This document shows, piece after piece, positions 12,752 to 29,668 of a stretch of 64,000 nt of DNA. Source of the stretch: Myxococcota bacterium (GTDB taxonomy: Bacteria > Myxococcota > XYA12-FULL-58-9 > JABJBS01); assembly GCA_036339465.1 (NCBI GenBank), contig JAYZAY010000064.1, positions 21,664-85,663 of the forward strand, in the 5' to 3' direction. The translations under genes and the position numbers were made by a program. Each line of letters begins with the position of its first letter. Positions within the stretch are counted from its first letter, which is position 1. The notes under the pieces are model-generated. The model was not told the DNA's origin. It saw only the letters and a program-made list of their open reading frames with translations, and did not search any database.

Positions 12752-12852
12752 GTTTGGCGTCGACTTTTCACCAAAAAACGCTGAAGATATAAGGAGAACT
12801 TGACGCACTTAGCCGATGGTGTCATGGCGGTCGTTAAAGGAGTTTGCTAATC

Positions 12853-13437: not shown

Positions 13438-13483
13438 ATTCAATTACCGACCACACAACTCAATCACAGGAATTCCTAAGTCC

Positions 13484-14446
13484 ATGAGTGCACCATTCCG
13501 AATGATAATGATGGGTTCACCTGATTTTGCCGTGCCCACCCTGAGAGAAATCTTAAAAGACCCCACAAAATTTGAAGTGATTTTAGTTATCACCCAACCA
13601 GACAAAAAGGCTGGTCGCGGCCGAAAAGTGTTGCCCTGCCCCATGGCCAAATTCGGCGAGAGTAAGGACTTGGTGGTCGCTAAGCCCAAGACCCTAAGAA
13701 ACAAGGACTTCCAAGAAGAGCTCAGGCAACTCAATCCCGACTTTATCGTTGTGGCAGCCTACGGTAAAATACTACCCCAAGAAGTTTTGAGTATACCAAA
13801 ATTTGGCTGCATAAATGTTCACGCATCCCTCCTCCCTCAATACCGGGGTGCATCCCCAGTCGCCCACGCAATTCTAGGGGGAGATTCAACCACTGGTGTC
13901 TCCATCATGGGGATGACTGAAGGCTTGGATGAAGGGCCCATCTTTGCAACAAACACGTGCAAAATCACGGACAACCATACCCGGATTTCTCTCACCCAAG
14001 AACTCGCAGAAATAGGCGCAAACCTACTTACCGACACCCTTCCCGCCATAGCCAATGGTACTCTTCAAGGAATACCTCAACCCGAACATGGTTCCAGCTA
14101 CGCCCGAAAAATCGACAAGCCCGATGGCCTCCTAGATTTCTCGAAGTCGGCCGTTGATTTAGAGCGTCAAATCAGAGCCTTCAACCCTTGGCCTGGTACC
14201 TTCACCTTCCTCAAGAACCAGAGAGTGAGAATCCATGCCGCAACCACTTCTAGTACCCAACACCCAGAACGGCCGGGTCACGTATACGCAATAGATAAAG
14301 CCGGTATCAGTGTAACCTGTGGTTTCGGCTCACTAAACATTACTCAAATCCAACCAGAAGGAAAGAAAAACATGGATGCATCCTCCTGGGTAGCGGGACG
14401 AGGAATTGCCGTTGGAAACTGCTTCGGTATGACGGCCGACGCATAA
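13484..14446 (+). CDS. fmt: Methionyl-tRNA formyltransferase
   Basis: MGSPDFAV, TQPDK..GRG, VAAYGKILP, INVHASLLPQYRGASP, RAFNPWPG. Confidence 0.97.
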   Translation: MSAPFRMIMMGSPDFAVPTLREILKDPTKFEVILVITQPDKKAGRGRKVLPCPMAKFGESKDLVVAKPKTLRNKDFQEELRQLNPDFIVVAAYGKILPQEVLSIPKFGCINVHASLLPQYRGASPVAHAILGGDSTTGVSIMGMTEGLDEGPIFATNTCKITDNHTRISLTQELAEIGANLLTDTLPAIANGTLQGIPQPEHGSSYARKIDKPDGLLDFSKSAVDLERQIRAFNPWPGTFTFLKNQRVRIHAATTSSTQHPERPGHVYAIDKAGISVTCGFGSLNITQIQPEGKKNMDASSWVAGRGIAVGNCFGMTADA

Positions 14447-14547: not shown

Positions 14548-14877
14548 ATGAGTGACTCTGATTTAAAAACATTTAAAATTGGTGATACCCATCAACCGAC
14601 GGTTGCTGCCTCTGCTTCCCATCGGGCATCACAAGCCGCAAAAGGGAAGCCAACCGTGGGCTTCCCTAGACTCGAAAAGCTATTGGAAACGGAAACGGCC
14701 GAAACCGTCGACACAAAAATGAACGCAATCTTAACCAATTTGGGCAATTTAGAATCCCAAGCCGACAGCCCCAAAGAAAAAGCGTGCGCTAAAAGAGCGA
14801 CAGCAGCAGTATCTCAAGCCCATGAAATGCTTATATTTCTTTACGAAACCAAAAGCCTGGTGACACCCGGTGGCTGA
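14548..14877 (+). CDS. Small helical protein; candidate YscE/PscE-like needle co-chaperone
   Basis: Two predicted helices (RLEKLLETE...LTNL; KRATAAVSQAHEMLIFL) resembling YscE as I recall it; first gene of the T3SS cluster, directly before the needle-like gene. Confidence 0.45.
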   Translation: MSDSDLKTFKIGDTHQPTVAASASHRASQAAKGKPTVGFPRLEKLLETETAETVDTKMNAILTNLGNLESQADSPKEKACAKRATAAVSQAHEMLIFLYETKSLVTPGG

Positions 14878-14989
14878 AAAAAGTCAAAGCCCCTGTATTT
14901 TTTAACCGAAAGCCTTCGGGCTTGCTAATGTCACTACGAGCGACGAAAATTCAACAAAGCTCAAAGAACTGAAACCACGGAGTTTTGCA

Positions 14990-15469
14990 ATGACAAACAT
15001 TAAGAACAATTCAATAGGCAACCAAGTAGACGTCAACAAAAGCCGTGCTCGACAAACACAGAATGCATCAAAGAGCTTTGCTTCAGCAGTAGCCAATACA
15101 ACTGCGGGGGTAGCACGCTCTGTGGGTGCCGTGGTACCTGGAGGCTCTATCTTAACTGCTGCAGCTAGTTCCATTCAAAACTCTGTCGGTTCACCTAACG
15201 CACGAAATGTAAGCTTGGCTGGAACAACTACAACATCCTCAACCAATGACACATTTTCCGCAGTCAACGAGCTCGCTGCAAGCGGCGACTCTTCTGCCAC
15301 AATGTTTAACGCTACCAAAGAGCTACAAGAACTCAACCAGCAATTTAACCTAGAATATTTGAATCTCCAGCAAGAAATGCAGGGAGAAAACCGAAAATTC
15401 AGTGCTATTTCTAACGTCATGAAAACCAAGCATGACACTGCCAAGGGTATGATTCAGAACGTACGATAA
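14990..15469 (+). CDS. Candidate T3SS needle/filament subunit (SctF-like) with a long Ser/Ala/Thr-rich N-terminus
   Basis: C-terminus YLNLQQEMQ...SAISNVMKTKHDTAKGMIQNVR matches the needle-protein terminal pattern (SNxxKxxxDxxxxIIQNxR); followed by a strong terminator. Confidence 0.55.
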   Translation: MTNIKNNSIGNQVDVNKSRARQTQNASKSFASAVANTTAGVARSVGAVVPGGSILTAAASSIQNSVGSPNARNVSLAGTTTTSSTNDTFSAVNELAASGDSSATMFNATKELQELNQQFNLEYLNLQQEMQGENRKFSAISNVMKTKHDTAKGMIQNVR

Positions 15470-15495
15470 TGCCAAACAGTGTACGTCGCTCACTC

Positions 15496-15539
15496 CAAAC
15501 GCCGCAGGTCGCTCATGCCACCTGCGGCGTTTGTGTTTT
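15496..15539 (+). terminator. Rho-independent terminator after the needle-like gene
   Basis: Perfect 14-bp stem caaacgccgcaggt / acctgcggcgtttg, 10-nt loop, followed by tgtttt. Confidence 0.85.
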
Positions 15540-15619
15540 AACGGTACCTGTTTTAAAATTCTCCTGAGACCGCTAACGCATCGACCAGTGAACTGGCCCC
15601 GACGTAAGGACTAATTTAA

Positions 15620-16042
15620 ATGACAGATACGATATCGGATATAATTCAAGGAATAGTTCCCATCGAGCAAAAAGACCTAAGTCTACTTCTGGAGATAGGT
15701 TATTTCTACCTGGAGTTACAGAAGTTTAAAGAAGCGGAGGAAATTTTTAATGGAGTCGCAGCTTTGATCCCTCACAGCGAAATCCCGCACATAGCCTTGG
15801 GACATCTTTATTTTTCCCAAGGTCACTTCAACCCCGCACTCAAAGCCAATAAAGCAGCCGTTCTGCTCAATACAGAGTCCGCGCCGGCCCACGCAGCTGT
15901 TGGAGAAGTCCTCTTCTTCCTAAAAAAACCGGACGACGCAGTGACCGCGCTCAATAAAGCAATCCAATGTTCACCAGAAAGCCCTGCCGCAGAATTCGCT
16001 CAAGCGTTGCTTCACGCGAATGAAGTCGGCGTATTTGGTTAA
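15620..16042 (+). CDS. Three-TPR protein; candidate YscG-like T3SS chaperone
   Basis: TPR patterns (GYFYLELQKFKEAEEIF, LGHLYFSQG, VGEVLFFLKKPDDA); located directly after the needle-like gene. Confidence 0.65.
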   Translation: MTDTISDIIQGIVPIEQKDLSLLLEIGYFYLELQKFKEAEEIFNGVAALIPHSEIPHIALGHLYFSQGHFNPALKANKAAVLLNTESAPAHAAVGEVLFFLKKPDDAVTALNKAIQCSPESPAAEFAQALLHANEVGVFG

Positions 16043-16062
16043 TCGGTTAGAAGGAGTGAGCT

Positions 16063-16536
16063 ATGACAAAGGTTGGGGGCGGACCCAAGCCGCCGGTTCA
16101 AGTACCCATTCATGAACAAACGGGTAAAGCAGAGGAGCAAAAAGAGACAGCTAAAGGAGACGCTAAGGGGGCCCAAGTTCAGCGAGACCGATTCGAGGCA
16201 TCTCGCTCTCCCCTAGCAAATCGCCTCCAAGCTCTCCAAGCACAACGGGGGACGGCCAAGCTACAATTCAGTAACGCTGAAATGGCCGAGTTGGTGAAAA
16301 CTTTCGGCGCGATCCTTAAACAGAACCCACAAGCAGACCGAAAAAAGAGAGCAAAATTGTTCGCGGAAGCATTGCTCAAGAAAAAGAAGAAATTTAAGAA
16401 ATTCTTCAGTTCTGCTGCAGAACAAGATCTCGAAAACCTCTTTGATGCCATAGCCGAGCAACTAGAGAGTTCACCTGTCTTTGCGCAGTTGGTTGACGAC
16501 GTATCCGAAGAGTCCATTAAATTCGCAGGGAGTTGA
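16063..16536 (+). CDS. Hypothetical protein in the T3SS cluster (disordered N-terminus, helical C-terminus)
   Basis: aaggag RBS; co-oriented; its stop lies 4 nt before the sigma-factor start. Confidence 0.7.
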   Translation: MTKVGGGPKPPVQVPIHEQTGKAEEQKETAKGDAKGAQVQRDRFEASRSPLANRLQALQAQRGTAKLQFSNAEMAELVKTFGAILKQNPQADRKKRAKLFAEALLKKKKKFKKFFSSAAEQDLENLFDAIAEQLESSPVFAQLVDDVSEESIKFAGS

Positions 16537-16540
16537 TATC

Positions 16541-17293
16541 ATGAGTGGTTCACCCAGCTCCAATGCTCCAAGTAAAACAACCCAAGGCAAAGGGGCCAAA
16601 AAGAACATGGATTTCACCAATTCAAGGGCTGTGGTAGAGCAATACACTCCCTATGTTCGGTCAATCGCCACCAAAGCAAGCAGAAATCTTCCACCCGACA
16701 TCGAACTTGATGACTTGGTCGGATATGGAATGGTCGGACTTCTCGAAGCAGCCCAGCGATTCGATCCAGAAGCGGGTGCCAATTTCATGACATTTGCGTT
16801 CTACAGAATCAGGGGGGCCGTGTATGATGGCCTTCGTAGCATGGGTTGGATGAGCCGCACAGAATACGCCAAGGCCAGATTCGAAGAACGAGCCAACGAA
16901 TATTTGGCCGCACTTGCCTTTGCCGAGGAAACAGGGGCTCAGGCTCCCGAAAATCCATTTGAAATTGCAGTGGAAGATTTGGCGGCGGCTGTTGAGGGTC
17001 TTGCTGCGGTATACCTTACCGCCATCGACGGAACGGAAGGACTCCAACTCGAAGATGATAAGAATCCCAAACCAGATGAGAAACTTGGACTTGAGCAAGC
17101 TCGATCTCTGGTTAGAAAGACAATTTCTAAGCTTGGTGGCCAAGAACGAACCCTAATGGAACTCTACTATTACAGTGAAATGAGTCTGCAAGAAGTCGGT
17201 GAAAAACTCGGACTCTCTAAAAGCTGGACAAGTCGGTTGCATAAACGAGTTATCGAAAAACTAAGACGGATATTGGATGACGAATTAGGCTAA
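16541..17293 (+). CDS. fliA: FliA/WhiG-family (sigma-28-like) RNA polymerase sigma factor
   Basis: Region 2 DDLVGYGMVGLLEAAQRFDP and YRIRGAVYDGLR; region 4 LYYYSEMSLQEVGEKLGLSKSWTSRLH. Confidence 0.88.
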   Translation: MSGSPSSNAPSKTTQGKGAKKNMDFTNSRAVVEQYTPYVRSIATKASRNLPPDIELDDLVGYGMVGLLEAAQRFDPEAGANFMTFAFYRIRGAVYDGLRSMGWMSRTEYAKARFEERANEYLAALAFAEETGAQAPENPFEIAVEDLAAAVEGLAAVYLTAIDGTEGLQLEDDKNPKPDEKLGLEQARSLVRKTISKLGGQERTLMELYYYSEMSLQEVGEKLGLSKSWTSRLHKRVIEKLRRILDDELG

Positions 17294-17419
17294 TTCTGTG
17301 ACCATGATCTCGGTAAACCCATTATCACGTAAAGGGGCTATAGAAAAGCAGCCATTTTACATCCAATGTGGGTACTAATTATGAACAATGAATCTTTGAT
17401 AAACGCTCGGAGGTAATCC

Positions 17420-17917
17420 ATGGACCCCGTCGGTGGTGGAATAGGCAAAGCAGCTGCGGCGCTTATGAAAGAAATGCAGCAGGTACAACAACAAGCCGAG
17501 CAAATGCAGGAAGCTCAACAAACACAGCAAGTTGACAGTGCACAATTTCAGCAAGCCATGCAAGATCAACAGGGCCCAGAGAACGTAAATAAGACCAACG
17601 CGGTACAACCCACTCCCCAAGGCTCAAGTATTCTCTCTCAAGTACACGCTTCAGGGGCCAGTCCCTCCCAAGCAATTGGGCAAACCGAAAGAGTCGAAAA
17701 GACTCAAGTTGCTCAAATGCTTGAAGGTTTAGCAGATGGGCAGCAAGAGATGAATAACATCATGGAAAAAGCTCTATCTGGCGATAAACTATCAAGCCAA
17801 GAACTCCTCGCCATGCAAGCTAAGATTTACCGATTTACCCAAGAAATGGAGATCACATCTAAAGTTGTCGAAAAGAGTACCAGTGGCCTCAAGCAAACCA
17901 TGAACACTCAGGTTTAA
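17420..17917 (+). CDS. sctI: T3SS inner-rod protein, YscI/HrpB-like
   Basis: C-terminus LSSQELLAMQ..IYRF..EMEITSKVVEKSTSGLKQTMNTQ; immediately upstream of sctJ; ggagg RBS. Confidence 0.7.
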   Translation: MDPVGGGIGKAAAALMKEMQQVQQQAEQMQEAQQTQQVDSAQFQQAMQDQQGPENVNKTNAVQPTPQGSSILSQVHASGASPSQAIGQTERVEKTQVAQMLEGLADGQQEMNNIMEKALSGDKLSSQELLAMQAKIYRFTQEMEITSKVVEKSTSGLKQTMNTQV

Positions 17918-18041
17918 TTCCCCTACTTTCTTTACGAAAGTCACCTCCCCCCCCCCTAACTAAGTTGCTTCAACCGCTCACCGAGGATAGCCCTTCCTAT
18001 AAGCGGAGAGGGTCCCGCCAGCGACTCCTAATCACAATTGG

Positions 18042-18947
18042 ATGGGACTAAAGATAATGCGACCAAAGCGACTTAGCCAAAAGATCAAGAATCGGAATCA
18101 TTACTTATCAAGACTCACCCTGCTCCTGGGCGCCATGACATTCTCCACTGCGTGTGCGCCAGAAACCATTATTCATGACATCGGTGAACGAGAAGCAAAT
18201 ACGATTCTTGAGCTCCTAGCCGACCACGATATTCAAGCAAATAAACTAATGAAGAGCGATGGCCGAACAACCAAATTTGACGTCCTAGTCAATTCAGATA
18301 AAGCTATGAGCTCTATTAGACTGCTCAATCAATACGAATTACCAAGACGTGCTGACAAAGGCTACGCTGACGTCTTTGGGGAAGGTGGCCTCATCCCTAC
18401 GTCATCAGAAGAAAAAGCCAAAGAACTGGCCGCGCTCGAAGGTGAAATTCAAAAGCAACTCAAATTGGTGGATGGTATCCTCGATACCGAAGTCAATCTG
18501 GTCATCCCTGAAAACAATCCACTGCGTAACAACGAAGAGCAACAACCTACCCCCACCGCAAGTTTGACCATCCGATACCTACCGGGTAAAGGCGGAAGTA
18601 AACCCATCACGGAACAACAAGTTCAGGTGCTTGTATCTGCGGCTGTCGAAAATCTAAGTGCGGACAAAGTCTTTCCGCTCATGACCCCTGTCACCATCGG
18701 CTACAAAACAGAAGGACTAAGGGATGATCGCGATTCAGTAAAAGGCTCATGGATAGGGCGACTCGATAAAAAGACAGTGAACATTTTAACCATCCTAATC
18801 ACCGTATTATTCGTCGTACTCGCAAGTCTACTTGTCGTTTCCCAATTACGACTAAATAACGTCCGCGGTCGCTTGCTCCGACTCCAAAACGAAATCGCCA
18901 ATGCACGGAAAAGACAGTCCGGGGACAGCCTGCCCCCAGCCAGCTGA
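18042..18947 (+). CDS. sctJ: T3SS inner-membrane ring lipoprotein
   Basis: Lipobox-like FSTAC, EREANTI, GGLIPTSSEEKA, GILDTEVNL, VSAAVENL, C-terminal TM helix; short YscJ type rather than FliF; exact start uncertain. Confidence 0.9.
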   Translation: MGLKIMRPKRLSQKIKNRNHYLSRLTLLLGAMTFSTACAPETIIHDIGEREANTILELLADHDIQANKLMKSDGRTTKFDVLVNSDKAMSSIRLLNQYELPRRADKGYADVFGEGGLIPTSSEEKAKELAALEGEIQKQLKLVDGILDTEVNLVIPENNPLRNNEEQQPTPTASLTIRYLPGKGGSKPITEQQVQVLVSAAVENLSADKVFPLMTPVTIGYKTEGLRDDRDSVKGSWIGRLDKKTVNILTILITVLFVVLASLLVVSQLRLNNVRGRLLRLQNEIANARKRQSGDSLPPAS

Positions 18948-18970
18948 CAGATTGCTAAAGGTTAAGTACG

Positions 18971-20014
18971 GTGCACCCGTTTTTCCATCCACTAACTCCC
19001 TATGAAACCATGCAACTCCTGACCTCTTTGGCTGTTGCTGGTCCCGAGGCTGTAGAACTTTTACGTTTTATCCCCGAGGAACAAAGAGAACGAATCAACG
19101 AAAAAGCAACGTCACTGCTCAAACTTGAAGGTGAAAAACGGATCCCGTTTGTCGTCTCGCAGCTCAAAGAACTCTTAAGTGGAGACAATATCGGCTTCGA
19201 CAAAATCGAGCCAAGCTGGATTTTGGATGAATTACTGGAAGAAGAACCTATTTCTATCGGAATTCTCCTTATAACCCTGCCACCAAACACCACCAAAATC
19301 TGTATCAAGATGCTCCCAGATACAATTCGTGAACAACTTCCACCAAGATCTGCCGTCATCGAAACCCCGCCCCTGGTTCAAAAAGCAGCACTTCGACAAT
19401 TCGAATCGCGCTTTACCCCAATGCCTTGTTTTGGCGCTTTGAGAGAGTTTCAGTTCCAAGACCTCCTCCGATTAGAAAGTTCCGATTGGCATCAACTTTT
19501 AAACGTTATTGGTAAAGTCGAGGTCGGTCAGGCATTCGTGTCAGTAGGTAAAATGGCTTTGGTTGATTTCTGCCGACAGCTTTCAGCCACAGACGCAGAA
19601 AATCTGCTCGCAACGGTCAAACGACACCCAGAAATGACCCCTGAAGAAATCAAAACCGGACAAAGATTTCTCTCCCGAATTGCTGGCTCCTTTAAGGCAA
19701 TGGATGAACTCTTTTCGTGTGCGAGTTTGTGGCGTCTTGCCAAAGCCACCTATGGAGAACCGAAACGATTCACCCAACAAATAGCCCTGCGAATACCGAG
19801 AAAGTGGGGAATCCAATACCTAGACTATCTCGAGAAAATACCAGAAATGGATGACCTAAACCCCCAAGATTTTTTAAACTATCAGGATTCAATCCTCATT
19901 GAGCTCATTCATCTAATCCATAACCAAGCCATCAATTTTCAAATGGGAAAAGCAAATATTGTGATGAATACGCCCGATCGCTACAAGAATGCCAGTACTG
20001 CGAATGACAATTAA
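18971..20014 (+). CDS. FliG-like / SctK-position sorting-platform adaptor
   Basis: Lies between sctJ and sctL; segments resembling FliG N, M (EEPISIGILL vs EHPQTIALIL) and C (FQFQDLLRL vs FxFEDLxxL). Confidence 0.6.
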   Translation: MHPFFHPLTPYETMQLLTSLAVAGPEAVELLRFIPEEQRERINEKATSLLKLEGEKRIPFVVSQLKELLSGDNIGFDKIEPSWILDELLEEEPISIGILLITLPPNTTKICIKMLPDTIREQLPPRSAVIETPPLVQKAALRQFESRFTPMPCFGALREFQFQDLLRLESSDWHQLLNVIGKVEVGQAFVSVGKMALVDFCRQLSATDAENLLATVKRHPEMTPEEIKTGQRFLSRIAGSFKAMDELFSCASLWRLAKATYGEPKRFTQQIALRIPRKWGIQYLDYLEKIPEMDDLNPQDFLNYQDSILIELIHLIHNQAINFQMGKANIVMNTPDRYKNASTANDN

Positions 20015-20059
20015 CATTGCCCCCTTTTAACCTAACCCCGGCCGTGGCAAAATCAACCT

Positions 20060-20722
20060 ATGGGAAAAGTAATTAAAAAAGGAATCGGAGACGACACAGG
20101 GTTTCAGGACCTCGTTTCCACCGATGAACCAACACGGCGAGCACCAATCATCGAGCGCGCTACAGTCGAAGCAAAAGATGAAGCTTCCGAAATTATAACG
20201 AAAGCCAAAAGTGAAGCCGAACAAATCATTCAAGCGGCAGAAGAAAAAGCAAAACACCTTGAGGCAGAAGCCCATGAACGCGGTTTTTCTGAAGGCAAAG
20301 AAGAAGGGGCATCCCAGTTACTCGAAACCGTAACCAAAGCCAGTAAGAGGATCCAGCAGACCGAAGACGCTCTTTCCAAAAACATTAAGGATCTGGCGAT
20401 TGGCATAGCCAAAAAGATCTTGGGTCAAGAGCTACAATCAAATCCTGATGCTGTGGTGGCACTTGTTAAACAAGCCCTCACCGACAAGGCGAGACAACGT
20501 AAAGAAATCAGCTTACGAATAAATCCAGAGGATTTGGAACACATCCGATCCAGTAGAAGCGAACTTCTTGAAGTATTAAGCCGTTGCCGCGAAATCTCAA
20601 TTAGGGAGGATCCAGACGTAGCGCGGTTTGGAGTCATTATAGAAACAGAAGCGGGTACCATTGATGCCCAATTAGAAACTCAGCTAGAGGCAATTCAAAA
20701 TGTTCTCAGAGCGATGCCCTAA
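20060..20722 (+). CDS. sctL: T3SS stator protein FliH/SctL
   Basis: AxxxA and GxxxG repeats (ERGFSEGKEEG), LRINPEDL, GVIIETEAGTIDA. Confidence 0.92.
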   Translation: MGKVIKKGIGDDTGFQDLVSTDEPTRRAPIIERATVEAKDEASEIITKAKSEAEQIIQAAEEKAKHLEAEAHERGFSEGKEEGASQLLETVTKASKRIQQTEDALSKNIKDLAIGIAKKILGQELQSNPDAVVALVKQALTDKARQRKEISLRINPEDLEHIRSSRSELLEVLSRCREISIREDPDVARFGVIIETEAGTIDAQLETQLEAIQNVLRAMP

Positions 20723-20737
20723 AGCCGAGAACAAAAA

Positions 20738-22078
20738 ATGAGTGACGGAGCACCTATCATCGACATTAATCAATATCTCCAAGCGATCGAACAAGCCGAA
20801 ACGGTTTCTGTTCGGGGCCGAGTTCTAGAGGTTACTGGACTGGTTATTAAGGCCCTGATCCCCGGAGTCCGAATTGGTGAAATGTGTTACGTCGATACGG
20901 GAATCGGCAATAGAATCGTCTGTGAAGTCGTCGGATTTCAAGACGAAAATGTGATGCTCATGCCCCTTGGGGAAGCACACGGTATTGGCCCAGACAGCGA
21001 AGTTTTAGCTACAGGAAGACCTTTCTCAGTTCGATGTGGTTGGGGCCTCCTAGGACGCGTTCTAGATGGCTTAGGACGACCTATTGATGGTGGCCCTGCC
21101 CTAGATGACCTTCCCGATCTCGTGGATTGGCCGGTGGAACGTGAAGCCCCAGACCCCATGAAACGAATGCGAATTACCGAGAGTATCGCCATGGGAGTTA
21201 GAGCCATCGACGGACTTTTAACCGTCGGTCTAGGCCAAAGAGTTGGGCTTTTTGCCGGTTCCGGGGTTGGCAAATCGACTCTCATGGGCCAGATCGCCAG
21301 AAATACTGAAGCTGAAGTTGTTGTCGTCTGTCTCATTGGTGAGCGGGGTCGTGAAGTAAGAGACTTTATAGAAGAATCCCTAGGCGATGAGGGTCTCCGA
21401 AAGGCGGTTCTAATTGTGGCGACCTCAAATACCCCCTCCTTGGTTCGCTTAAAGAGCGCTTTTATTTCCACCGCAATTGCCGAATGGTTTAGGGATCAGG
21501 GAAAGAAAGTTCTCTTTATGATGGACAGCTCAACCCGATTTGCACGTGCTCAACGCGAAATAGGTCTAGCCATAGGAGAGCCACCCGCCCGGCAAGGCTA
21601 TCCACCGAGCGTATTTTTTCAGATCCCTAGGCTCATGGAACGCACCGGTAACAATGAGACGGGTTCAATCACGGCCCTCTATACCATTTTGGTTCAAGGC
21701 GGAGATATGGAGGAACCTATCGCTGATGAAGTGCGCGGTATCCTAGACGGCCATATTATCCTTAATCGAGAGCTGGGCGCACGAAACCACTGGCCCGCTA
21801 TCGATATACTGCCTTCTCTTTCCAGAGTCATGAATGGAGTTGCCGGTGACCAACACAAAGCGGCGGCCGCCAAGTTACGAGAAGTACTAGCAACCTACGA
21901 AAAACAGCGGGATCTTATTCTCCTCGGAGCATACCAATACGGTACAGACACAAAAACAGATTATGCCATCGACAAAATCGAAGAAGTCGAAGCATTCCTT
22001 AGACAAGGCATGCTTGAATGCGACGATTTTGAAACAACCGTTCATAAGCTAGCCAGCATGTTCACAGACGTAATGTAG
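20738..22078 (+). CDS. sctN: T3SS export ATPase
   Basis: Walker A AGSGVGKS, GERGREVRDF, MDSSTRFARAQREIGL, GYPPS, ILDGHI. Confidence 0.96.
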   Translation: MSDGAPIIDINQYLQAIEQAETVSVRGRVLEVTGLVIKALIPGVRIGEMCYVDTGIGNRIVCEVVGFQDENVMLMPLGEAHGIGPDSEVLATGRPFSVRCGWGLLGRVLDGLGRPIDGGPALDDLPDLVDWPVEREAPDPMKRMRITESIAMGVRAIDGLLTVGLGQRVGLFAGSGVGKSTLMGQIARNTEAEVVVVCLIGERGREVRDFIEESLGDEGLRKAVLIVATSNTPSLVRLKSAFISTAIAEWFRDQGKKVLFMMDSSTRFARAQREIGLAIGEPPARQGYPPSVFFQIPRLMERTGNNETGSITALYTILVQGGDMEEPIADEVRGILDGHIILNRELGARNHWPAIDILPSLSRVMNGVAGDQHKAAAAKLREVLATYEKQRDLILLGAYQYGTDTKTDYAIDKIEEVEAFLRQGMLECDDFETTVHKLASMFTDVM

Positions 22079-22097
22079 GGTGAATTGAGTTAACTCC

Positions 22098-22592
22098 ATG
22101 GCCAAAAAACAAGAATATCGACTACAAGCGCTATTGGAAATCCGGAAACGCACCAAAGAGGACAAAGAACAAGAACTCGGTCAGTGCCTACAACGTTTGG
22201 AGACAGAAAAAGACAGCCTCGCCGGAATGAAGAAAAAATTAGAGGAAATGCTCCAAGACCGCGAACGAAGAGCAAAAGAATACGCCGATAAGCAGATGCG
22301 TGGCGAGATGAGCGCCCAAGCAATGACCGGAGCCCAATCTTACCTGAAAAGACTGAAAGAGAGTGAGGCCATCCAAGAAGAACTTATTCGAGATCAAGAA
22401 TCGGTGATTCGCCAAAGGCAAGATGAAGTTCAAGCAGCAAGAGAAATACTCTTAGAAGCAACCCAAGAACTAAAAAGCCTAGAGAAACACAAGGAAAAAT
22501 GGGAAAAAAAGGTCAAGAAAGAAAGACAAGCCAAGGAAGAACAAGAGCAAGAACAATTGGCACAGGCTATCTTTTTAAATAGGGAGAAATAA
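22098..22592 (+). CDS. sctO: T3SS stalk protein FliJ/SctO
   Basis: YRLQALLEIR N-terminus, all coiled coil, LEKHKEKW; directly after the ATPase. Confidence 0.85.
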   Translation: MAKKQEYRLQALLEIRKRTKEDKEQELGQCLQRLETEKDSLAGMKKKLEEMLQDRERRAKEYADKQMRGEMSAQAMTGAQSYLKRLKESEAIQEELIRDQESVIRQRQDEVQAAREILLEATQELKSLEKHKEKWEKKVKKERQAKEEQEQEQLAQAIFLNREK

Positions 22593-22655
22593 GGAGAAAT
22601 AAGGAGAAATAAGGAGAAATAAGGAGAAATAAGGAGAAATAAGGAGAAATAAGGA
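22581..22655 (+). repeat. 10-bp tandem repeat (aaggagaaat x6 plus two variant flanking units) spanning the sctO stop codon
   Basis: Read directly from the sequence. Confidence 0.95.
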
Positions 22656-22743
22656 AGAAAACAAATCTTCTAACCCGTGACCCCACCAAACGATAATGTG
22701 ATTAAGGCTGCCTGCCAAGGTAAGTACAAGGAGCCCACCTATT

Positions 22744-23586
22744 ATGAGCGACCGAGTCCAAGACCGCCGTGAAGCACAAATAACAGAGCAAAAACGCCTG
22801 GAAAAGGAAACATCGAAAAAAGACACACAGAAGTCTTCAGACCGAAAATTCTCACAGACAATGAAAAATGCTGCCTCCGAAACCACAACCAGATCAAACC
22901 AACCTCCAAGTACAAATCGCCCTAAAGGGGCAGCCAGCAAGAATAGCAGCGCGCAAGCGCTCGCAGCGCGCAAGGGAATTGCTTCGCAAAAATTCAGTGA
23001 CACTCTCTTTGGAACAGGAGAGAAAAACCTAAATTACTCCAAAGACTTAAGTAGCAACAGGGCCGAGCAAAAAGATCAAGAAAGACTCGAATTCAACGAT
23101 TCGAAGCAACAAGACTCCGTTAAGGAGCTGAACGAGAATGACCCACTGGCCGCAATAAGTGAGAGGCAAAGTCAATCAGGACAGGGGGGCAGTTTCGGGC
23201 AACCCCACGACGAGGGCCACCAACCTGAGACAGGTAGCCTAGACACAATCGATAACATAGGAAATCCGTCTGGCACCAAAAACGTGAAGCAAAGTCAGGG
23301 CGCTGGCCAAGCAGGTCAAATCCCACCCGCTATCCTTGAAAAACTCGTCAACCAAGTAATGGCCGGTGTGGATGAAATAGGCCAACCCCAATTCATCATC
23401 GAACTTAACCAAGAAACTTTGCAGGGTGCAAGAATCGAGATCAAACGGGCTGAAGACGGCATCGAGATAATATTCACGAGTCCTCACAAAGATATCCAAA
23501 ACCTGATTAAATCAAATGAAAATCGACTACATCGAGCATTTCACCACCGCGGGCTCAACCTTAATAAAGTCTCTGTGAGTAGCTAA
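22744..23586 (+). CDS. sctP: FliK/SctP-like length-control (ruler) protein
   Basis: Low-complexity polar N-terminus plus T3S4-like C-terminal domain (IELNQETLQGARIEI...IEIIF...LHRAF..RGL); located between sctO and sctQ. Confidence 0.7.
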   Translation: MSDRVQDRREAQITEQKRLEKETSKKDTQKSSDRKFSQTMKNAASETTTRSNQPPSTNRPKGAASKNSSAQALAARKGIASQKFSDTLFGTGEKNLNYSKDLSSNRAEQKDQERLEFNDSKQQDSVKELNENDPLAAISERQSQSGQGGSFGQPHDEGHQPETGSLDTIDNIGNPSGTKNVKQSQGAGQAGQIPPAILEKLVNQVMAGVDEIGQPQFIIELNQETLQGARIEIKRAEDGIEIIFTSPHKDIQNLIKSNENRLHRAFHHRGLNLNKVSVSS

Positions 23587-23726
23587 TCACTCCACTTCTC
23601 ATCCTCTATCTACCATTCACTAAACATCTCAATTTGCCCCCGAGCTCTTCAATGATATAAGGCTTGGCGTTGGACAGAGTGGGCTGATGCCCATGATAAT
23701 TTTCAGACGAAAGAAATGGACAAAAC

Positions 23727-24986
23727 ATGGATTCGGTTAGAGCCTACCAATTCCATAATCTCCCCAAATACAATCGCCTTGAAGCGGGATTACTCGAAAC
23801 ATCTAGCGTGTTTCTTTCTAATAATCTTTTTGGACCAAGCCTCCTCCAAGCAATCCAAAGCAAGCTGGGTGAACTTGTCCGAACCTCCGTCCAACTTACA
23901 AACTCCCCTCCAACCCTACTTAAAGGCACCGAAGTCAGCCAGTTACTACCGGAACAAGGCTGCTTCATGCATTTACAGTGCAACCCTACGACTGAGCGGA
24001 TCCTAGTGGACATTGATGCCGGTTTGGCACTGGGGTGGATCGATGCAATGTTCGGTGCCCAAGTCAAAATAACCCCTGTACAACGACCACTTAACGAAAT
24101 CGAAAGAGGAGCATTCTCGTACATCATTCTAAATGTTCTAGCTGAAATTCATTCCGGTTGGTCGCACGGACCGCAATTGTCCCTGAGCTTAATGGAGACG
24201 TTCAGTTCTCGAAAAAACGCCATGACCACGTTAGACCTAAACGGAAACCATTTCCACCTAGGAATCACCATCGCTTTTGCCAAAAGCCTTGGCTATATTC
24301 GGCTATTTGTGCCCACAAGCTTGATGTCGGAACTTGCAACTTGGGCCTTACTGGATCAGGTCTCTCATGATTCACTCAGCTTTCGAAGAAAACGAGCTGC
24401 GATGCTTCATGATCTAGATTGTAAAGCGCGCTGTGAAATTGCTCGGATTGGCCTAAGTATTGAGGAGCTAAAAAACTTGGAACGTGGGGATATTATTATC
24501 CCCGAAGACCATGGCATTAGTCTTGGTCCTAACGGACCATCCGGAGACCTGCAAATTAGACTGGGGCGAGGTCAAAACGGCTACCTCCAGACCCAATTAA
24601 TTCCAGATTCCGGACAATTAAAATGTGCCATTCAATCGATCATTATACATGAACAACCCAATGAGGTTCCCATGGACGAAGACCAAATATTAAACGAAAC
24701 AAACGGTGAAATGGTGGAAAACCCTGCCCACAACGACAATCTAGAGCAAACCGAGGGACTTCTTAATGATATCCAATCTCCCGTAGTCGTTGAGCTAGGC
24801 CGACTCAATTTGAATGCGGGTCAGGTGATTCGCCTCAAGGAAGGACAAATTCTTCGCCTCCCTCGAGCCGCCACTGATCCGGTCGATCTCGTCGTCAATG
24901 GTCGCGTCTTCGCCCGGGGGCAACTTGTGGAAGTCGAGGGAGAGCTGGGTGTTCGAATCCTTCAGCTCGCTGGCTCTCAATCCTAA
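23727..24986 (+). CDS. sctQ: T3SS cytoplasmic ring protein SctQ (FliM/FliN-like, two SPOA domains)
   Basis: LSIEELKNLERGDII and VVVELGR...LKEGQIL...VNGRVFARGQLVEVEGELGVRI. Confidence 0.9.
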   Translation: MDSVRAYQFHNLPKYNRLEAGLLETSSVFLSNNLFGPSLLQAIQSKLGELVRTSVQLTNSPPTLLKGTEVSQLLPEQGCFMHLQCNPTTERILVDIDAGLALGWIDAMFGAQVKITPVQRPLNEIERGAFSYIILNVLAEIHSGWSHGPQLSLSLMETFSSRKNAMTTLDLNGNHFHLGITIAFAKSLGYIRLFVPTSLMSELATWALLDQVSHDSLSFRRKRAAMLHDLDCKARCEIARIGLSIEELKNLERGDIIIPEDHGISLGPNGPSGDLQIRLGRGQNGYLQTQLIPDSGQLKCAIQSIIIHEQPNEVPMDEDQILNETNGEMVENPAHNDNLEQTEGLLNDIQSPVVVELGRLNLNAGQVIRLKEGQILRLPRAATDPVDLVVNGRVFARGQLVEVEGELGVRILQLAGSQS

Positions 24987-25004
24987 ATACCCCAGGAACC
25001 ATTC

Positions 25005-25601
25005 ATGAAAACATTGGTGCTTGCCCTAGGGCTCATCATGGGAACGCTGGCAGGGCCTGCTTCCTCTACTGAAGCAGTGAAGTCTCCTAAAGTCCTCTCT
25101 AAGGGCGAAAAGGCCACATCACCAAATATTGCCCCTAAGGCACCAAGTGGAAAACCAGACCAGTCACCTGCTCCAGCACCGAGCCCACCCCCAAGTTCTT
25201 ACGACATATCCAAAGAAAATGCCGGACAGGTCTCTAAAGCCAATGAAGAAACTGATAATGATTTTGGTACCGCTCTTTTGAAGATGATTATTTCCCTTGG
25301 GGCGGTCCTGGCTTTGCTCATCATCATCGGCAGGGTTTTTCGGGGGAAATTAAAGTACTTTGGCTTCCCCGGCCAAACAAACGACATGAAATTGTTGACT
25401 CGCTTACCACTGGATAGCAAACACGTCCTTTTCGTGGTTGAAGTGGGTTCCAAGAACAAGTTACTTCTTGGCGGCGGTAACGGAAGCCTTTCTTTATTGA
25501 GAGAGTTCTCTTCAGAAGAAACCGACAGGTTGGCTTCCTCAGAGCCCGTTCAGGCAAACATCGAAACGGGATCACTACATCCTCGTGTAAAGGAAGCATA
25601 G
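25005..25601 (+). CDS. fliO: FliO-like export-gate assembly chaperone
   Basis: N-terminal signal and Pro-rich segment, TM helix LKMIISLGAVLALLIII, FliO motif MKLLTRLPLDSKHVLFVVEVG..LLLG...LSLL; directly before sctR. Confidence 0.75.
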   Translation: MKTLVLALGLIMGTLAGPASSTEAVKSPKVLSKGEKATSPNIAPKAPSGKPDQSPAPAPSPPPSSYDISKENAGQVSKANEETDNDFGTALLKMIISLGAVLALLIIIGRVFRGKLKYFGFPGQTNDMKLLTRLPLDSKHVLFVVEVGSKNKLLLGGGNGSLSLLREFSSEETDRLASSEPVQANIETGSLHPRVKEA

Positions 25602-25607
25602 GCTATT

Positions 25608-26402
25608 ATGAAACGACTCTGGAACACGATGAACTGGGCAATAGCCTTGACAATGCTGCACTGGATGGACGCTGCACCCGCCTTGGCTGTGAAAAAGGGG
25701 GCTGACGCCCTCGGCTCAAATAGCCTTGCGAATCGACCCTTAATTCTTCTAACCGCCCTAGCCGGCCTCGCTCTCGTACCATTTGTTCTAATAATGGTCA
25801 CTTCGTTCGTAAAAATTGCGGTGGTGCTCTCCATCGTGAGACAGGCCGTGGGAACTCAGCAAATCCCTCCAACGCAAGTCATTACCGGGTTGGGAATCGT
25901 TCTTACCGTCTACATTATGATGCCAGTGGGACTGGAAGTCTATCACAACGCCCAGGAGAGAATGCTTCAGGAATCGCCCAAGGGCGAAAGTATGAAAATG
26001 AGCGACCTTACGGTGCAACAAGCTCTAGACCTCGCCAAGGAGGCAGAAGGCCCAATGAAAGGTTTTCTGGTAAAACATGCCCATTTGAAAGATCGGGACA
26101 TGTTCTACAAACTCGCTTGGAGAATGAGAAAACCGCGAGATAGAGCAACGCTTTCCGACCAAGATTGGGCCATCATTATTCCTGCCTTCGTCATCAGTGA
26201 ACTCAAGGAAGCCTTTCAAATTGGGTTCATTCTATTCGTCCCGTTCTTGGTGGTCGACATGGTCGTCGCCAACATACTTATGGCCCTGGGTATGCAGATG
26301 CTCTCGCCAACAACGATATCCCTCCCATTCAAAATCCTCTTATTCGTAATGGTCGATGGATGGTACCTAATAACCAAGGGCCTTGTGATAGGATATCAGT
26401 GA
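25608..26402 (+). CDS. sctR: Export apparatus FliP/SctR
   Basis: TSFVKIAVVLSIVRQAVGTQQIPP, PAFVISELKEAFQIGF, LGMQMLSPTTISLPFK, VDGW. Confidence 0.96.
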   Translation: MKRLWNTMNWAIALTMLHWMDAAPALAVKKGADALGSNSLANRPLILLTALAGLALVPFVLIMVTSFVKIAVVLSIVRQAVGTQQIPPTQVITGLGIVLTVYIMMPVGLEVYHNAQERMLQESPKGESMKMSDLTVQQALDLAKEAEGPMKGFLVKHAHLKDRDMFYKLAWRMRKPRDRATLSDQDWAIIIPAFVISELKEAFQIGFILFVPFLVVDMVVANILMALGMQMLSPTTISLPFKILLFVMVDGWYLITKGLVIGYQ

Positions 26403-26409
26403 GGAACAT

Positions 26410-26688
26410 ATGGACCAGGAAGTCATAGAGTTTATCATTCGAATTACCAACGAAGCCCTATTGATGATTATCGTGGTTTGCGGACCGCCCATTCTTCTTA
26501 GTATGATCGTGGGGCTCTTAATTTCACTCTTTCAAGCGGTTACCCAACTTCAAGAACAGACCCTCACCTTCGTCCCTAAGATGATCGTTATCTTCGGGGT
26601 TCTCGCTGCTCTGGGACCTTGGCTTGGGGGAACACTTTTGACCTTTGCGCAAAAGTGCTTCTCCGAATTCCCAAAATACTTATTTTGA
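26410..26688 (+). CDS. sctS: Export apparatus FliQ/SctS
   Basis: GLLISLFQAVTQLQEQTLTFVPK. Confidence 0.96.
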   Translation: MDQEVIEFIIRITNEALLMIIVVCGPPILLSMIVGLLISLFQAVTQLQEQTLTFVPKMIVIFGVLAALGPWLGGTLLTFAQKCFSEFPKYLF

Positions 26689-26704
26689 TACTACGACGAA
26701 GCGC

Positions 26705-27535
26705 ATGGAAGACTTTCTAATAAAAGCCAGAGAACTCCTAAGTTACACCACGGAGCTTATGACCTTCGCTTTGTTGATAGGTCGTACCATGCCAATGATC
26801 GTTCTAACCCCCTTTCTCGCTGGCAAGATCGCTCCCACCGAACTCAAGATGGGCTTGGGAATCTCCCTAAGCCTACTTATTTGGCCCGTGGCTACCGCAG
26901 GTATGACAGGGCAACTCGTTTACGCTCCGGGCCCCTTTCTCTTACTGATGCTGAAAGAAACCTTCATCGGTTTCGCCATAGGATTTGTCAATGCACACAT
27001 CTTTTATGCCATGGAAATGTCCGGTCGTATCATTGACACTGTACGGGGGGTTTCCATGTCCGAGGTCCAAGTTCCCCATTCTCAACAGCGTGCAACCCTA
27101 ACCGGGAGTCTCTACTATCAATTACTCTTAATCGTATTTTTTGCGGCCGGGGGTCACCATGTGTTTTTCAATGCATACTTTGATTCGTATTTAACAATTC
27201 CTATCAACGAAGGAATTGCCACCGGACTGGGCCTCACCGCACTCACCGACTTCATCGCCAAATTGACTGGGGATATACTTACCATCGCCGTCAGATTGGC
27301 AGCACCCATTATCGCAGCCACATTAATTACGGACATCGTTTTCGGGATTCTAAACCGCGTTGCCCCGCAACTTAACGCATATTTCATGTCTATGCCCGTA
27401 AAGGCTCTCGGGGGCGTGATCGTCATATTCATTGCATTCTCGGCTGTGCTTGCAAGCTTCAATGAGTTTACAATATGGGGCTCCGAAGCAATGAGAGATA
27501 TAATCGCATATTTCTCAAAAACCATAGGCATGTAA
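26705..27535 (+). CDS. sctT: Export apparatus FliR/SctT
   Basis: LKETFIG, GRIIDTVRG, LAAPI, GILNRVAPQLNAYFMSMPVK. Confidence 0.94.
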   Translation: MEDFLIKARELLSYTTELMTFALLIGRTMPMIVLTPFLAGKIAPTELKMGLGISLSLLIWPVATAGMTGQLVYAPGPFLLLMLKETFIGFAIGFVNAHIFYAMEMSGRIIDTVRGVSMSEVQVPHSQQRATLTGSLYYQLLLIVFFAAGGHHVFFNAYFDSYLTIPINEGIATGLGLTALTDFIAKLTGDILTIAVRLAAPIIAATLITDIVFGILNRVAPQLNAYFMSMPVKALGGVIVIFIAFSAVLASFNEFTIWGSEAMRDIIAYFSKTIGM

Positions 27536-28651
27536 ATGTCAGACGGCGGTACAGGCGAAAAAACGGAAGAGCCAACCCCGGAGAGGCTTAGAAAACTCCG
27601 AGAAGACGGGAATGTATCCAAAAGTCAGGACGTCACTTCGGCCGTTTCGTTCTTAGTGGTCTTTTGTGTTCTAGCGGGCTCTTTTGGTTTCATCGCTGAG
27701 GAAATCCGTGAGCTGATTGATATAGCATTGATTGGGTTTACCTCGCAGGAAGCCCCCGGAGTTCTTGCCAATCGACTCTTGATGCAGGGAATGATCACCC
27801 TTGGGAAATGCTGCGCCCCTGTGCTAGCCGCTGCATTTATCTTGGGTATTTCCATGAACTTGGCGCAGGTAGGCTTTCTCTTCACTCTGAAGCCCATCAC
27901 ACCAGACATCAAAAAAATTAACCCAATCCAGGGCTTCAAGAACTTAGTGAATATGAAGAAGCTCGTGGAACTCCTTAAAACAATTATAAAATTTACCGCA
28001 ATCAGTATCATTTCGTACTTCGCCCTGAATGACGCAATGCGTGACGTCATTTTAACTATCCGAAGTGACCTCACTATTGGTATGTTGGTTACCGGCGAAA
28101 TTATCTGGGACTTTTGTATCAGAATTGGCGCCGTATTCGTGGTAATTGCGTTGGCAGACGCACTTTACCAAAAAAAGAGGTATATTAAAGATAATAGGAT
28201 GTCGAAATATGACATCAAACAAGAATATAAACAGTCGGAAGGTGACCCCCAGCTTAAAGCCGAGAGGAAACAGCTGCACCGAGAAATGGCCAACGGCTCC
28301 GGTCAAAAGGGAGCTGTAAAAAAGGCGGACGTCGTCGTGAGAAACCCAGATCACATAGCTGTAGCCATCAAGTACAATAAAGAAACAGACGACGCTGCCC
28401 CAACCGTCGTCGCTAAGGGTGAGCGTATTTGGGCGGAGAAAATCCTCGAAGAAGCAAGGCACTACGGGGTTCCAATTGTTCGAAACGTGCCTTTGGCCCA
28501 AGCACTTAATAAAGTAGACGTCGGAAACGAAATCCCCGAAGAACTCTACGATGCGGTAGCTGAAGTGTTGAATTTTGTTTACACCCTTGCAGAAGAGCAA
28601 CAAAATAAGGGTAAAAAGAAACTCCCGAGAGGTAAGAGAAATGGCCAATAA
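27536..28651 (+). CDS. sctU: Export switch protein FlhB/SctU
   Basis: GEKTEEPT..RL...REDG, KINPIQG, EYKQSEGDP, NPDH cleavage-loop variant, PIVRNVPLAQAL. Confidence 0.95.
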   Translation: MSDGGTGEKTEEPTPERLRKLREDGNVSKSQDVTSAVSFLVVFCVLAGSFGFIAEEIRELIDIALIGFTSQEAPGVLANRLLMQGMITLGKCCAPVLAAAFILGISMNLAQVGFLFTLKPITPDIKKINPIQGFKNLVNMKKLVELLKTIIKFTAISIISYFALNDAMRDVILTIRSDLTIGMLVTGEIIWDFCIRIGAVFVVIALADALYQKKRYIKDNRMSKYDIKQEYKQSEGDPQLKAERKQLHREMANGSGQKGAVKKADVVVRNPDHIAVAIKYNKETDDAAPTVVAKGERIWAEKILEEARHYGVPIVRNVPLAQALNKVDVGNEIPEELYDAVAEVLNFVYTLAEEQQNKGKKKLPRGKRNGQ

Positions 28652-29108
28652 TATTAGTAGCTTTAAAGCGTTCACTCAAACTCCGGCGAATATTAGCGAA
28701 CACGGTGCCACCATCGAAGAGCTAAAGTCGCAGGGAACTCCCGACCCCAATCCGCTCGCCAGCCCCATGGCTACCTCAGCAGCAGCGGACGTGGGCTTGG
28801 CCATGAAACCGCGAATAGAAACCCAAAGAGATCCCAACGAACCAATGAGGGTCAATCATTTCAACGGGCCAAGTTACACCCACATGGTGAGTCGAGACGC
28901 AGTCGCAAAATTGGCGAACAATGCACTATTAAACGGTTTGGGTGAAGCACTTGCGAACCCAGAACTCCAAATGAATCTATCCAGCAACGCTAGGAACCAA
29001 CTTCAAAGCCTACTGAGAAAAGTAGGGGCGATGGCCCATGACGTACAGGGGCTAAACAAGCAAGTAGAGCAAATCTACGCCCGTTTCGTCAGCCACCAAC
29101 AAGTATAA
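28641..29108 (+). CDS. Hypothetical protein; candidate SctX-like early substrate
   Basis: Overlaps the sctU stop, gaggt RBS; disordered N-terminus and amphipathic terminal helix; precedes a small TPR chaperone. Confidence 0.4.
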   Translation: MANNISSFKAFTQTPANISEHGATIEELKSQGTPDPNPLASPMATSAAADVGLAMKPRIETQRDPNEPMRVNHFNGPSYTHMVSRDAVAKLANNALLNGLGEALANPELQMNLSSNARNQLQSLLRKVGAMAHDVQGLNKQVEQIYARFVSHQQV

Positions 29109-29164
29109 ACACCCAACACACTCCGCCCCACCTACAAACTCCCACTTTTCTGAAGACCAGATTT

Positions 29165-29668
29165 ATGATAGGCTCCCCTGCCATGTCGACAAATAATTCA
29201 CCAGAAAAAGCGCTGACAGTAGCTGAGGAACGGATCAAGGAACTCGCTGAAGAGTGGGGTTTGGGAAAAGTAAAACTTAAGGATATTGTGGGGCTCTCTC
29301 CTGATGAACTCTACGCAATATCGGCCCAAGGCTATCACTTTTTTCTCCAGGGCAAATCAGAACGCGCTCAAGTCATTTTTGAGGGACTGGCCGCGCTGGA
29401 TCCAACAAATGCGTATTATCACCGAGCGCTTGGGGCGGTCTACTGGAAACAAAAAGACCCCACTAAAGCCCTAAAGCAGTTTGGTTATGCCATTCGTATC
29501 GCCCCAAAAGATGCCTCATCCTATGTTAATAGGGCTGAAGTATTCGTCGCCACCAAACAATTTGCCGAAGCCAAAGCCGATCTAACCAAAGTATTGGCCT
29601 TGGTAACCCCCAGCCAAGAAGCTATTCAACAAAAAGCAAAAGCTATATTACAAATGATAACGGCATGA
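29165..29668 (+). CDS. SycD/LcrH/SctY-type three-TPR T3SS chaperone
   Basis: GLSPDELYAI...GYHFFLQGK...A..IFEGLAALDP...Y..ALG, typical of class II/SctY chaperones; start may be 29183. Confidence 0.8.
   Translation: MIGSPAMSTNNSPEKALTVAEERIKELAEEWGLGKVKLKDIVGLSPDELYAISAQGYHFFLQGKSERAQVIFEGLAALDPTNAYYHRALGAVYWKQKDPTKALKQFGYAIRIAPKDASSYVNRAEVFVATKQFAEAKADLTKVLALVTPSQEAIQQKAKAILQMITA

Follow-up and report, generated by a model that had tools for sequence, protein, structure and literature searches.

The core operon of a Myxococcota long-locus type III secretion system (T3SS*) in a flagellated host, and its probable needle homologue

A cluster of 20 intact, co-oriented plus-strand open reading frames (ORFs) occupies positions 14548-29668 of a 64,000-nucleotide stretch of DNA (the window) from a Myxococcota bacterium (GenBank assembly GCA_036339465.1, contig JAYZAY010000064.1, positions 21,664 to 85,663). 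Our analyses indicate that it is almost certainly the orthologue of the Myxococcus xanthus long-locus type III secretion system (T3SS*; MXAN_2434-2464), a known class, and we suggest, with a probability of roughly 0.6, that it is the core operon of a T3SS* which is not needleless but assembles a needle-type filament. In particular, the protein in the SctF position (F, ORF 14990) appears to be a needle homologue, and an operon elsewhere in the genome resembles a translocon operon. In the portions of the literature cited here the Myxococcota (Myxo) system, a 'long' non-flagellar T3SS (NF-T3SS) locus, is reported without secretin, SctF, tip or translocon (PMC3459982, PMC12075869, PMC10433427), and the evolutionary scenario proposed holds that Myxo systems lost SctF and have no YopB/D homologues (PMC3459982). 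Our search of the literature, which left the supplements and the Thiery et al. 2022 gene table outside, found no report of a needle or translocon in a Myxo T3SS.

Class membership

ORFs of the cluster were named by Pfam and NCBIfam profile scans, and distant pairs were compared by HHalign. The gene order read in an earlier note on this DNA is upheld, as are most of its names, and in the comparison that it proposed with the M. xanthus T3SS loci the long locus has the same order. M. xanthus AM003, M. eversor, Corallococcus and Cystobacter share this order, sigma factor and FliO included, and MXAN_2434 of DK1622, with which the published T3SS* cluster begins, falls into one sequence cluster with the F orthologue of AM003. 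SctI, J, L, N, Q, R, S, T and U are encoded in the window and SctV elsewhere, so that the full long-locus core is present; sctV lies on contig C59 (TIGR01399 836 versus FlhA 676 bits), flanked by unrelated ORFs.

Trees were quick IQ-TREE runs whose roots are not reliable, that of SctN being a quick fallback with an unreliable F1 root. SctN falls with M. xanthus in a 19-row group (SH-aLRT 87; SctN supports are moderate, 81-87), and its nearest relatives, up to 84% identical over the full length, are metagenome-assembled genomes (MAGs) labelled mostly Myxococcota and in some cases 'Bdellovibrionales'. SctV joins the Myxococcaceae long locus (support 98) and the sigma factor joins that of the M. 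xanthus T3SS* (support 91), apart from flagellar FliA; the SctR tree does not resolve the placement between Myxo groups. All four proteins branch outside the flagellar clades (FliI, FlhA and FliP for the ATPase and gate), and SctN, SctV and SctR also outside the Chlamydia and Proteobacteria groups. These trees, with no dedicated secretin found, agree with the earlier note's placing of the cluster in an early-branching, secretin-less Myxo-type system. FliO, sigma-28 and the FliG-like K are common to M. xanthus and Corallococcus and are therefore features of the class, not peculiarities of this locus.

In the quick SctV tree the short locus stands outside a group (support 99) that unites the long-locus Myxo systems with Pyrinomonadaceae, Chlamydia and Proteobacteria, and on this evidence the Myxo T3SSs may not form one clade. 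Pyrinomonadaceae loci L057, L058 and L066 are acidobacterial Myxo-like T3SSs that include a sigma factor and FliO; in L058 and L066, genes of the F family and G-like genes are found on the other strand (98% versus the F tail, 2.5% versus needles). Margulisbacteria/Saganbacteria loci (L038, L051-L056, L059-L065, L067, L068, L071-L075) have sigma-28, L, a J/FliF-like ORF of great length and an ATPase which is about 58% identical to SctN and lies on the flagellar side of the tree.

The probable needle homologue and its TPR neighbour

F is a protein of 159 residues whose N-terminus is disordered and which ends in a helix of strong conservation. When a 58-row alignment of F tails was compared with four genuine PF09392 needles, HHalign gave 86.6% over 42 ungapped columns reaching the C-terminus and a score of 33.4, compared with a maximum of 14.5 in 60 column shuffles and 8.0 for the reversed control; the value was 0.2% for inner rods and did not exceed 2.3% for eight other genes of the cluster. 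PF09392 was found at E<=0.5 in 18 of the 58 tails. Full-length F gave no needle match against Pfam, NCBIfam or PDB sequences (one family member matched HrpA at E 0.029), which we attribute to masking of the signal by the low-complexity N-terminus. The AlphaFold2 (AF2) model, a short helix and a long helix (pLDDT 60), had no Foldseek match, and VIA gave nothing but coiled coils of a generic kind (Z up to 6). Among 79 F-family loci, F stands before a TPR gene in 29 and before sctI in 19, five loci end at E-F, one is a short locus with a merged ORF and two gave no call. Judged from these comparisons F is very probably a needle homologue, and the descriptor 'without needle' fails for M. xanthus itself too, putative needle homologues being encoded in both genomes.

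The F-tail profile matches 3134 clusters. Stand-alone proteins with a highly conserved F C-terminal helix (L116, L118, L124, L126, L130, L135, L146, L150, L152, L157, L166, L169, L170) occur in Acidobacteriota, Aminicenantes, Armatimonadota, Syntrophaceae and a MAG labelled as archaeal; most have signal-peptide-like N-termini and some Nif11-like leaders, and no T3SS core gene was found near them.

In the predicted complex of F with the adjacent TPR protein (G) and the E-slot protein, the last 25 residues of F lie in the TPR groove, with a score of 0.85 versus 0.03 for the best of three controls; 116 of 157 solved pairs attain the 0.85 mark, compared with 2 of 215 mismatched ones. Between runs, contacts agree at >=74%, and the pLDDT of the partners does not fall below 57. 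Needle-chaperone complexes similar to this pair have already been solved. The model predicts that the TPR protein is a SctG-like needle chaperone; by HHalign, similarity to one YscG was not detectable. The E-slot ORF is kept upstream of F, makes just two confident contacts in the complex and has no similarity to YscE (HHalign 0.08%).

Needle-sized paralogues and long needle-tailed proteins

Genes for 71-74 residues lie directly 5' of sctV in Myxococcaceae long loci, in one to three copies (up to three identical); in Myxococcus sp. 1LA the 74-residue gene lies within the cluster but in reverse orientation to it. Aligned with the F tail the short proteins give 97.4%, PF09392 leads their family matches (29 of 58), and the best PDB match of their profile is 7y6c chain F (E 1.8e-4), a chain of 43 residues labelled 'needle protein co-chaperone' which we take to be a needle fragment. 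The model is a helix hairpin, with PrgI in two of four Foldseek rows at non-significant E values (7.8 and 9.6) and generic matches only by VIA (Z up to 8.2); in the ESM Atlas the top named cluster, with PF09392 in 19% of its members, scored 0.87, which we count for a needle. Compared directly with the four needles, the profile gave just 14.8% by HHalign, and the M. xanthus 74-residue protein alone had no Pfam match. This protein is identical to UniProt Q1D9J3_MYXXD and has two ABF-series accessions, as other DK1622 proteins do. Since the short form was not found in the genome studied here, F is its sole needle candidate.

The small-paralogue profile matches 37 of 41 sampled genomes, with up to 15 matches per genome. 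Across 22 loci examined, the helix is at the extreme C-terminus in all 29 matching ORFs, 28 of them encoding 276-1404 residues and one being an F orthologue. Many of the long proteins (L277-L296) have a common internal helix with variable inserts, and two carry a calpain-like protease domain. This genome has two, at C1:68052-69611 and C3:24776-26551 (L255, L256), of which the former contains DUF1521 with a GDPH site, the MIIA autocleavage domain that is found in T3SS-secreted NopE proteins according to PMC6506597. Comparison of the family with the tip candidate described below and with an LcrV-like protein gave no support for a relationship (HHalign <=2%). Directly after sctV in the M. eversor T3SS* cluster (L252:6407-7543) there is an MIIA (DUF1521) protein with a TPR chaperone, an effector candidate.

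A translocon-like operon on contig C33

The following operon was found via its chaperone; a composition filter for translocators gave no candidates.

C33:90749-97674 (L324:6750-13675), -, tip-like ORF, double SycD, SctE-like, SctB-like and 790-residue no-family ORF

It reads as a 347-residue ORF, a double SycD (over cut-off), a 391-residue ORF with a hydrophobic hairpin (SseC E 2.8e-4, below cut-off) and a 281-residue ORF with one hydrophobic segment, an order that parallels tip-chaperone-SctE-SctB of a Shewanella reference locus. The SctE-like family scored 39 against reference SctE (shuffles <=15; probability 50%), and its gene is present in 14 of 22 genomes of the order; in 13 relative loci, SycD is beside it in 11 and a SctB-like gene in seven. 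We consider from gene order and these matches that C33 probably carries a translocon operon, which could on its own be a later gain, and that the 790-residue ORF is a possible effector candidate. A lone SycD/LcrH chaperone above cut-off lies at C30:59488-59982 (L011:9489-9983), beside type II secretion-like genes.

Inventory of the cluster and its surroundings

The features of the window are as follows.

12844..14446, +, def-fmt, conserved neighbours on the upstream side, outside the system (fmt upstream in 9/19 long loci)
14548..14877, +, small helical protein in the E slot; a possible SctE-like co-chaperone judged from its position alone
14990..15469, +, likely SctF needle-family subunit with long low-complexity N-terminus, MXAN_2434 orthologue (HHalign, PF09392)
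15620..16042, +, TPR protein, predicted SctG-like needle chaperone (TPR; weak CdsG/SctY matches)
16063..16536, +, conserved ORF, role unassigned, kept in long loci
16481..17293, +, FliA/WhiG-like sigma factor dedicated to the cluster (TIGR02479 160.6 bits; cut-off of 189.6 not reached)
17420..17917, +, SctI inner rod (PF17001 E 6e-4, weak; NF038054 E 4e-3)
18042..18947, +, SctJ inner-membrane ring lipoprotein, 301 residues (TIGR02544 120 bits versus fliF 43)
18971..20014, +, FliG-like SctK-slot adaptor (HHalign versus FliG 95.8%, 223 columns)
20060..20722, +, SctL stator (PF02108, NF004968)
20738..22078, +, SctN export ATPase (TIGR02546 602 bits; tree)
22098..22592, +, SctO stalk, YscO-like (PF16789 E 9e-22)
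22744..23586, +, likely SctP-type length ruler (FliK/SctP-type C-domain PF02120 E 7e-6; HpaP weak)
23727..24986, +, SctQ C-ring, FliM+FliN-like (TIGR02551 88.6 bits; PF01052; PF02154, FliM domain weak)
25005..25601, +, FliO (PF04347 31.5 bits, above cut-off; also in Myxococcaceae long loci)
25608..26402, +, SctR (TIGR01102 above cut-off; tree)
26410..26688, +, SctS (PF01313; TIGR01403 and fliQ both above cut-off)
26645..27535, +, SctT (PF01311, TIGR01401)
27536..28651, +, SctU switch protein (TIGR01404 350 versus flhB 328 bits)
28575..29108, +, X-slot ORF, identity unproven (no Pfam/NCBIfam family)
29165..29668, +, SycD/SctY-like TPR chaperone (TIGR02552 91.9, NF052415 37 bits, both under cut-off)
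29802..31811, +, TPR membrane protein in the same orientation, connection with the system unproven (TPR; also after Y in locus L034)

ORF 17420 was compared by HHalign with real rods (41%) and with needles (2.3%). SctJ lacks the FliF C-domain and has a permissive lipobox at Cys38; the Pfam and NCBIfam scans found no rod, hook, flagellin or mot genes inside the cluster, in agreement with the earlier note, which had stressed this absence and the short SctJ in place of FliF. The labels that it had offered, with a query, for the E and X positions drew no sequence support in HHalign or in those scans; identity of the X-slot ORF with the Myxococcaceae gene of the same slot was likewise unsupported (HHalign 1.3%), as was a FlgM-like nature of ORF 16063 (0.3%). 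No SctW family was found in the scans of the cluster proteins, the rest of the genome not being searched. A sigma-28 promoter pattern was found in none of 12 upstream regions, that of flagellin included, and is uninformative.

The site looks native, as had been proposed: the cluster follows def-fmt, its GC content is 47.3% versus 48.9% for the genome (14th percentile of 222 windows), the 64-kb window has no tRNA, and no integrase or transposase family was found among 55 of its ORFs scanned with Pfam (four short ORFs left out). Between sctO and sctP (22590-22640) there is a short 10-bp tandem repeat, a possible slippage site. The window also encodes a 1002-residue protein (9743-12751) with a low-complexity repeat region, a coiled coil, DUF4388 and a C-terminal DnaJ domain, a MutH-family nuclease (60099-60836) and a second peptide deformylase (60868-61440).

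Alternative readings

The genome encodes flagellar structural genes on contigs C18 (flgBC-fliEFGHIJK-flgDE-motAB) and C100 (flgAHIJMKL), with five flagellin-family matches (genome 92.8% complete), and yet only one FHIPEP gene (SctV on C59) and one R/S/T/U set, so that the cluster might be thought to be the shared export gate of this flagellum, the more so as it holds FliO, a FliG-like K and sigma-28. We regard this as very improbable: the genome has its own FliF, G, H, I and J, and all six relatives fetched have a separate flagellar gate which branches with FlhA/FliP and which in two long contigs lies between motAB and flgA. Since C18 ends at motB and C100 at flgA, just where relatives have the gate, its absence is most likely an assembly gap, with flagellum and T3SS* coexisting; among 41 sampled genomes, flagellin was found in 25 and FHIPEP in 39. 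A separate flagellum argues against the cluster being a flagellum in transition, and the earlier note's 'intermediate', still tied to the flagellum, is not sustained, the complete structural set being on other contigs. That note had looked to flg, fliC and mot genes elsewhere, with core proteins inside flagellar clades, as evidence against its reading; the genes are there, but the proteins branch elsewhere. Equally improbable is a decaying relic of a flagellum or injectisome, the sense of an older annotation cited in PMC3459982, to which the missing SctC and several scores under curated cut-offs would lend themselves: all ORFs are intact, SctN is highly conserved, the order is kept across classes and M. 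xanthus shows a phenotype. Horizontal acquisition of a proteobacterial Ysc-type injectisome, suggested by the Ysc-like gene order and by the Shewanella-like order of the C33 translocon, is more improbable still, considering the placement of SctN, SctV and SctR outside the Chlamydia and Proteobacteria groups, the native GC content and the lack of a detected tRNA or integrase.

An alternative nearer to the published view is a needle-less periplasmic exporter, in which the needle-derived F family would be no more than a short periplasmic stub or export tags and cargo would leave via Kil, a type II secretion system (T2SS) or vesicles. Several of the observations that weigh against a needle-type filament speak for it as well. 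A dedicated secretin (SctC) was not found in the 92.8%-complete genome, and the protein of the SctD-annotated FHA gene orthologue (C61:53578-54693, E 2e-36) has a C-terminal membrane anchor and no periplasmic ring domain. No scanned F-family sequence reaches the PF09392 cut-off (the C-terminal 70 residues of ORF 14990 score 15 bits versus 29.4), and an unrelated helical family matches more F tails (21 of 58) than PF09392 does. F has a long, disordered N-terminus and at 159 residues is twice the length of a normal needle, in a genome without the 72-residue paralogue; its tail lacks a T3SS neighbour in 23 of the 79 loci, many with signal-peptide-like N-termini, and for this reason the helix by itself is no proof of needle function. 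The complex score may reflect likeness to solved needle-chaperone complexes, and the controls had no other TPR protein. Concerning C33, the SctE-like gene was found with the C33 query in none of 19 genomes outside the order, and the tip and SctB are named from their place in the operon, with HHalign values of only about 2%. Finally, Kil recruits T3SS* in M. xanthus (PMC12075869), and in the parts of that report drawn on here the Kil pilus is imaged at prey contacts and T3SS* is treated as needleless.

We nevertheless judge the periplasmic exporter unlikely. The rod, a likely ruler and a predicted chaperone are retained, the needle-sized paralogues occur in up to three identical copies, and there is a SycD-SctE-SctB-like operon; moreover, the Tad/Kil protein CpaB was found in none of six family genomes (19 of 41 overall), so that Kil cannot be the general conduit. 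The sole secretin found in the genome is PilQ, in a pilMNOPQ operon; relatives have at least two secretin-family matches, of whatever type. This PilQ (C67:20449-25608; L008:5450-10609) is unusually long (1720 residues, four AMIN domains) and is a candidate borrowed outer-membrane channel.

Discussion

Considering a needle-type filament, we suggest a mechanism in which the TPR protein would retain the helix of F in the cytoplasm, as SctG does with SctF, and F would then polymerize on the SctI rod under SctP/SctU control. A SycD-chaperoned SctE/SctB-like pair (C33) would form a pore in the contacted cell, and the long needle-tailed proteins could be variable tips or cargo riding on the filament. 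Because no SctC was found, we propose that the filament would cross the outer membrane via a secretin borrowed from another system (PilQ, T2SS or, in genomes that have it, Kil). Whether an extracellular filament is truly built and injects we see as evenly balanced; the fuller proposal, that the Myxococcota T3SS* is a complete secretin-less injectisome used against other microbes, with an MXAN_2434-family needle, polymorphic needle-tailed tips or cargo and, in this flagellated order, a SctE/SctB pore, is more tentative. We infer function throughout, and by analogy contact-dependent lysis of target cells is its likely use: the M. xanthus T3SS* is required, with Kil, for prey lysis (PMC12075869, PMC10433427), and the earlier note's statement that function is largely unclear is superseded to that extent. 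How T3SS* exports lytic cargo, and which cargo, are open questions stated in the same two reports.

The suggestion in the earlier note that the system may be more complete than usually credited is strengthened by the needle-like F and the translocon-like operon, which also challenge the scenario of SctF loss and absent YopB/D homologues. The genes concerned are named in a tractable laboratory strain (MXAN_2434, its TPR neighbour and the twin 74-residue genes), which makes the export question directly testable. Were the complete injectisome real, needle, tip and translocon would predate secretin capture, the history of injectisomes would have to be revised, and the needle-tailed proteins would be the missing lysis effectors of myxobacterial predation. 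In the portions of the literature consulted, Myxo T3SSs are mostly confined to Myxococcia, with Bradymonadia added (sources include PMC10196010, PMC11509652, PMC12288465, PMC11821767 and bioRxiv 10.64898/2026.07.10.737566). The present data extend T3SS* well outside Cystobacterineae, to lineages that have flagella and appear to lack Kil.

With the M. xanthus T3SS* the system shares the order F-G-orf-sigma-I-J-K-L-N-O-P-Q-fliO-R-S-T-U, the same clades, the lack of SctC and LcrH-like chaperones; it differs in that sctV, the FHA gene and the chaperones are scattered, in that the short FlhB-C-like gene and the 72-residue paralogue are absent, and in its host, which is flagellated, where CpaB was not found and a SctE/SctB-like operon is present. 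The short Myxo locus T3SS(2) (MXAN_5643-5654; Anaeromyxobacter) has the same F family directly 5' of sctI-sctJ, but no L/N/O/P, sigma factor or E/G in the loci seen, and its own SctV and SctR clades. Ysc-type injectisomes, as in the Shewanella locus (L257/L301), have in common with it the E-F-G...I-J order, a tip-SycD-SctE-SctB-like order and the needle C-terminal helix, whereas the system described here is without SctC and ring SctD (and SctW, none being identified in the cluster scans), keeps FliO, sigma-28 and the FliG-like K, and belongs to a different clade. Finally, FliO, the FliA-like sigma factor, the FliG-like K and the FliM-like Q are shared with the bacterial flagellar T3SS, from which the system is set apart by its short SctJ, a locus free of axial and motor genes, SctV in place of FlhA and a separate clade.

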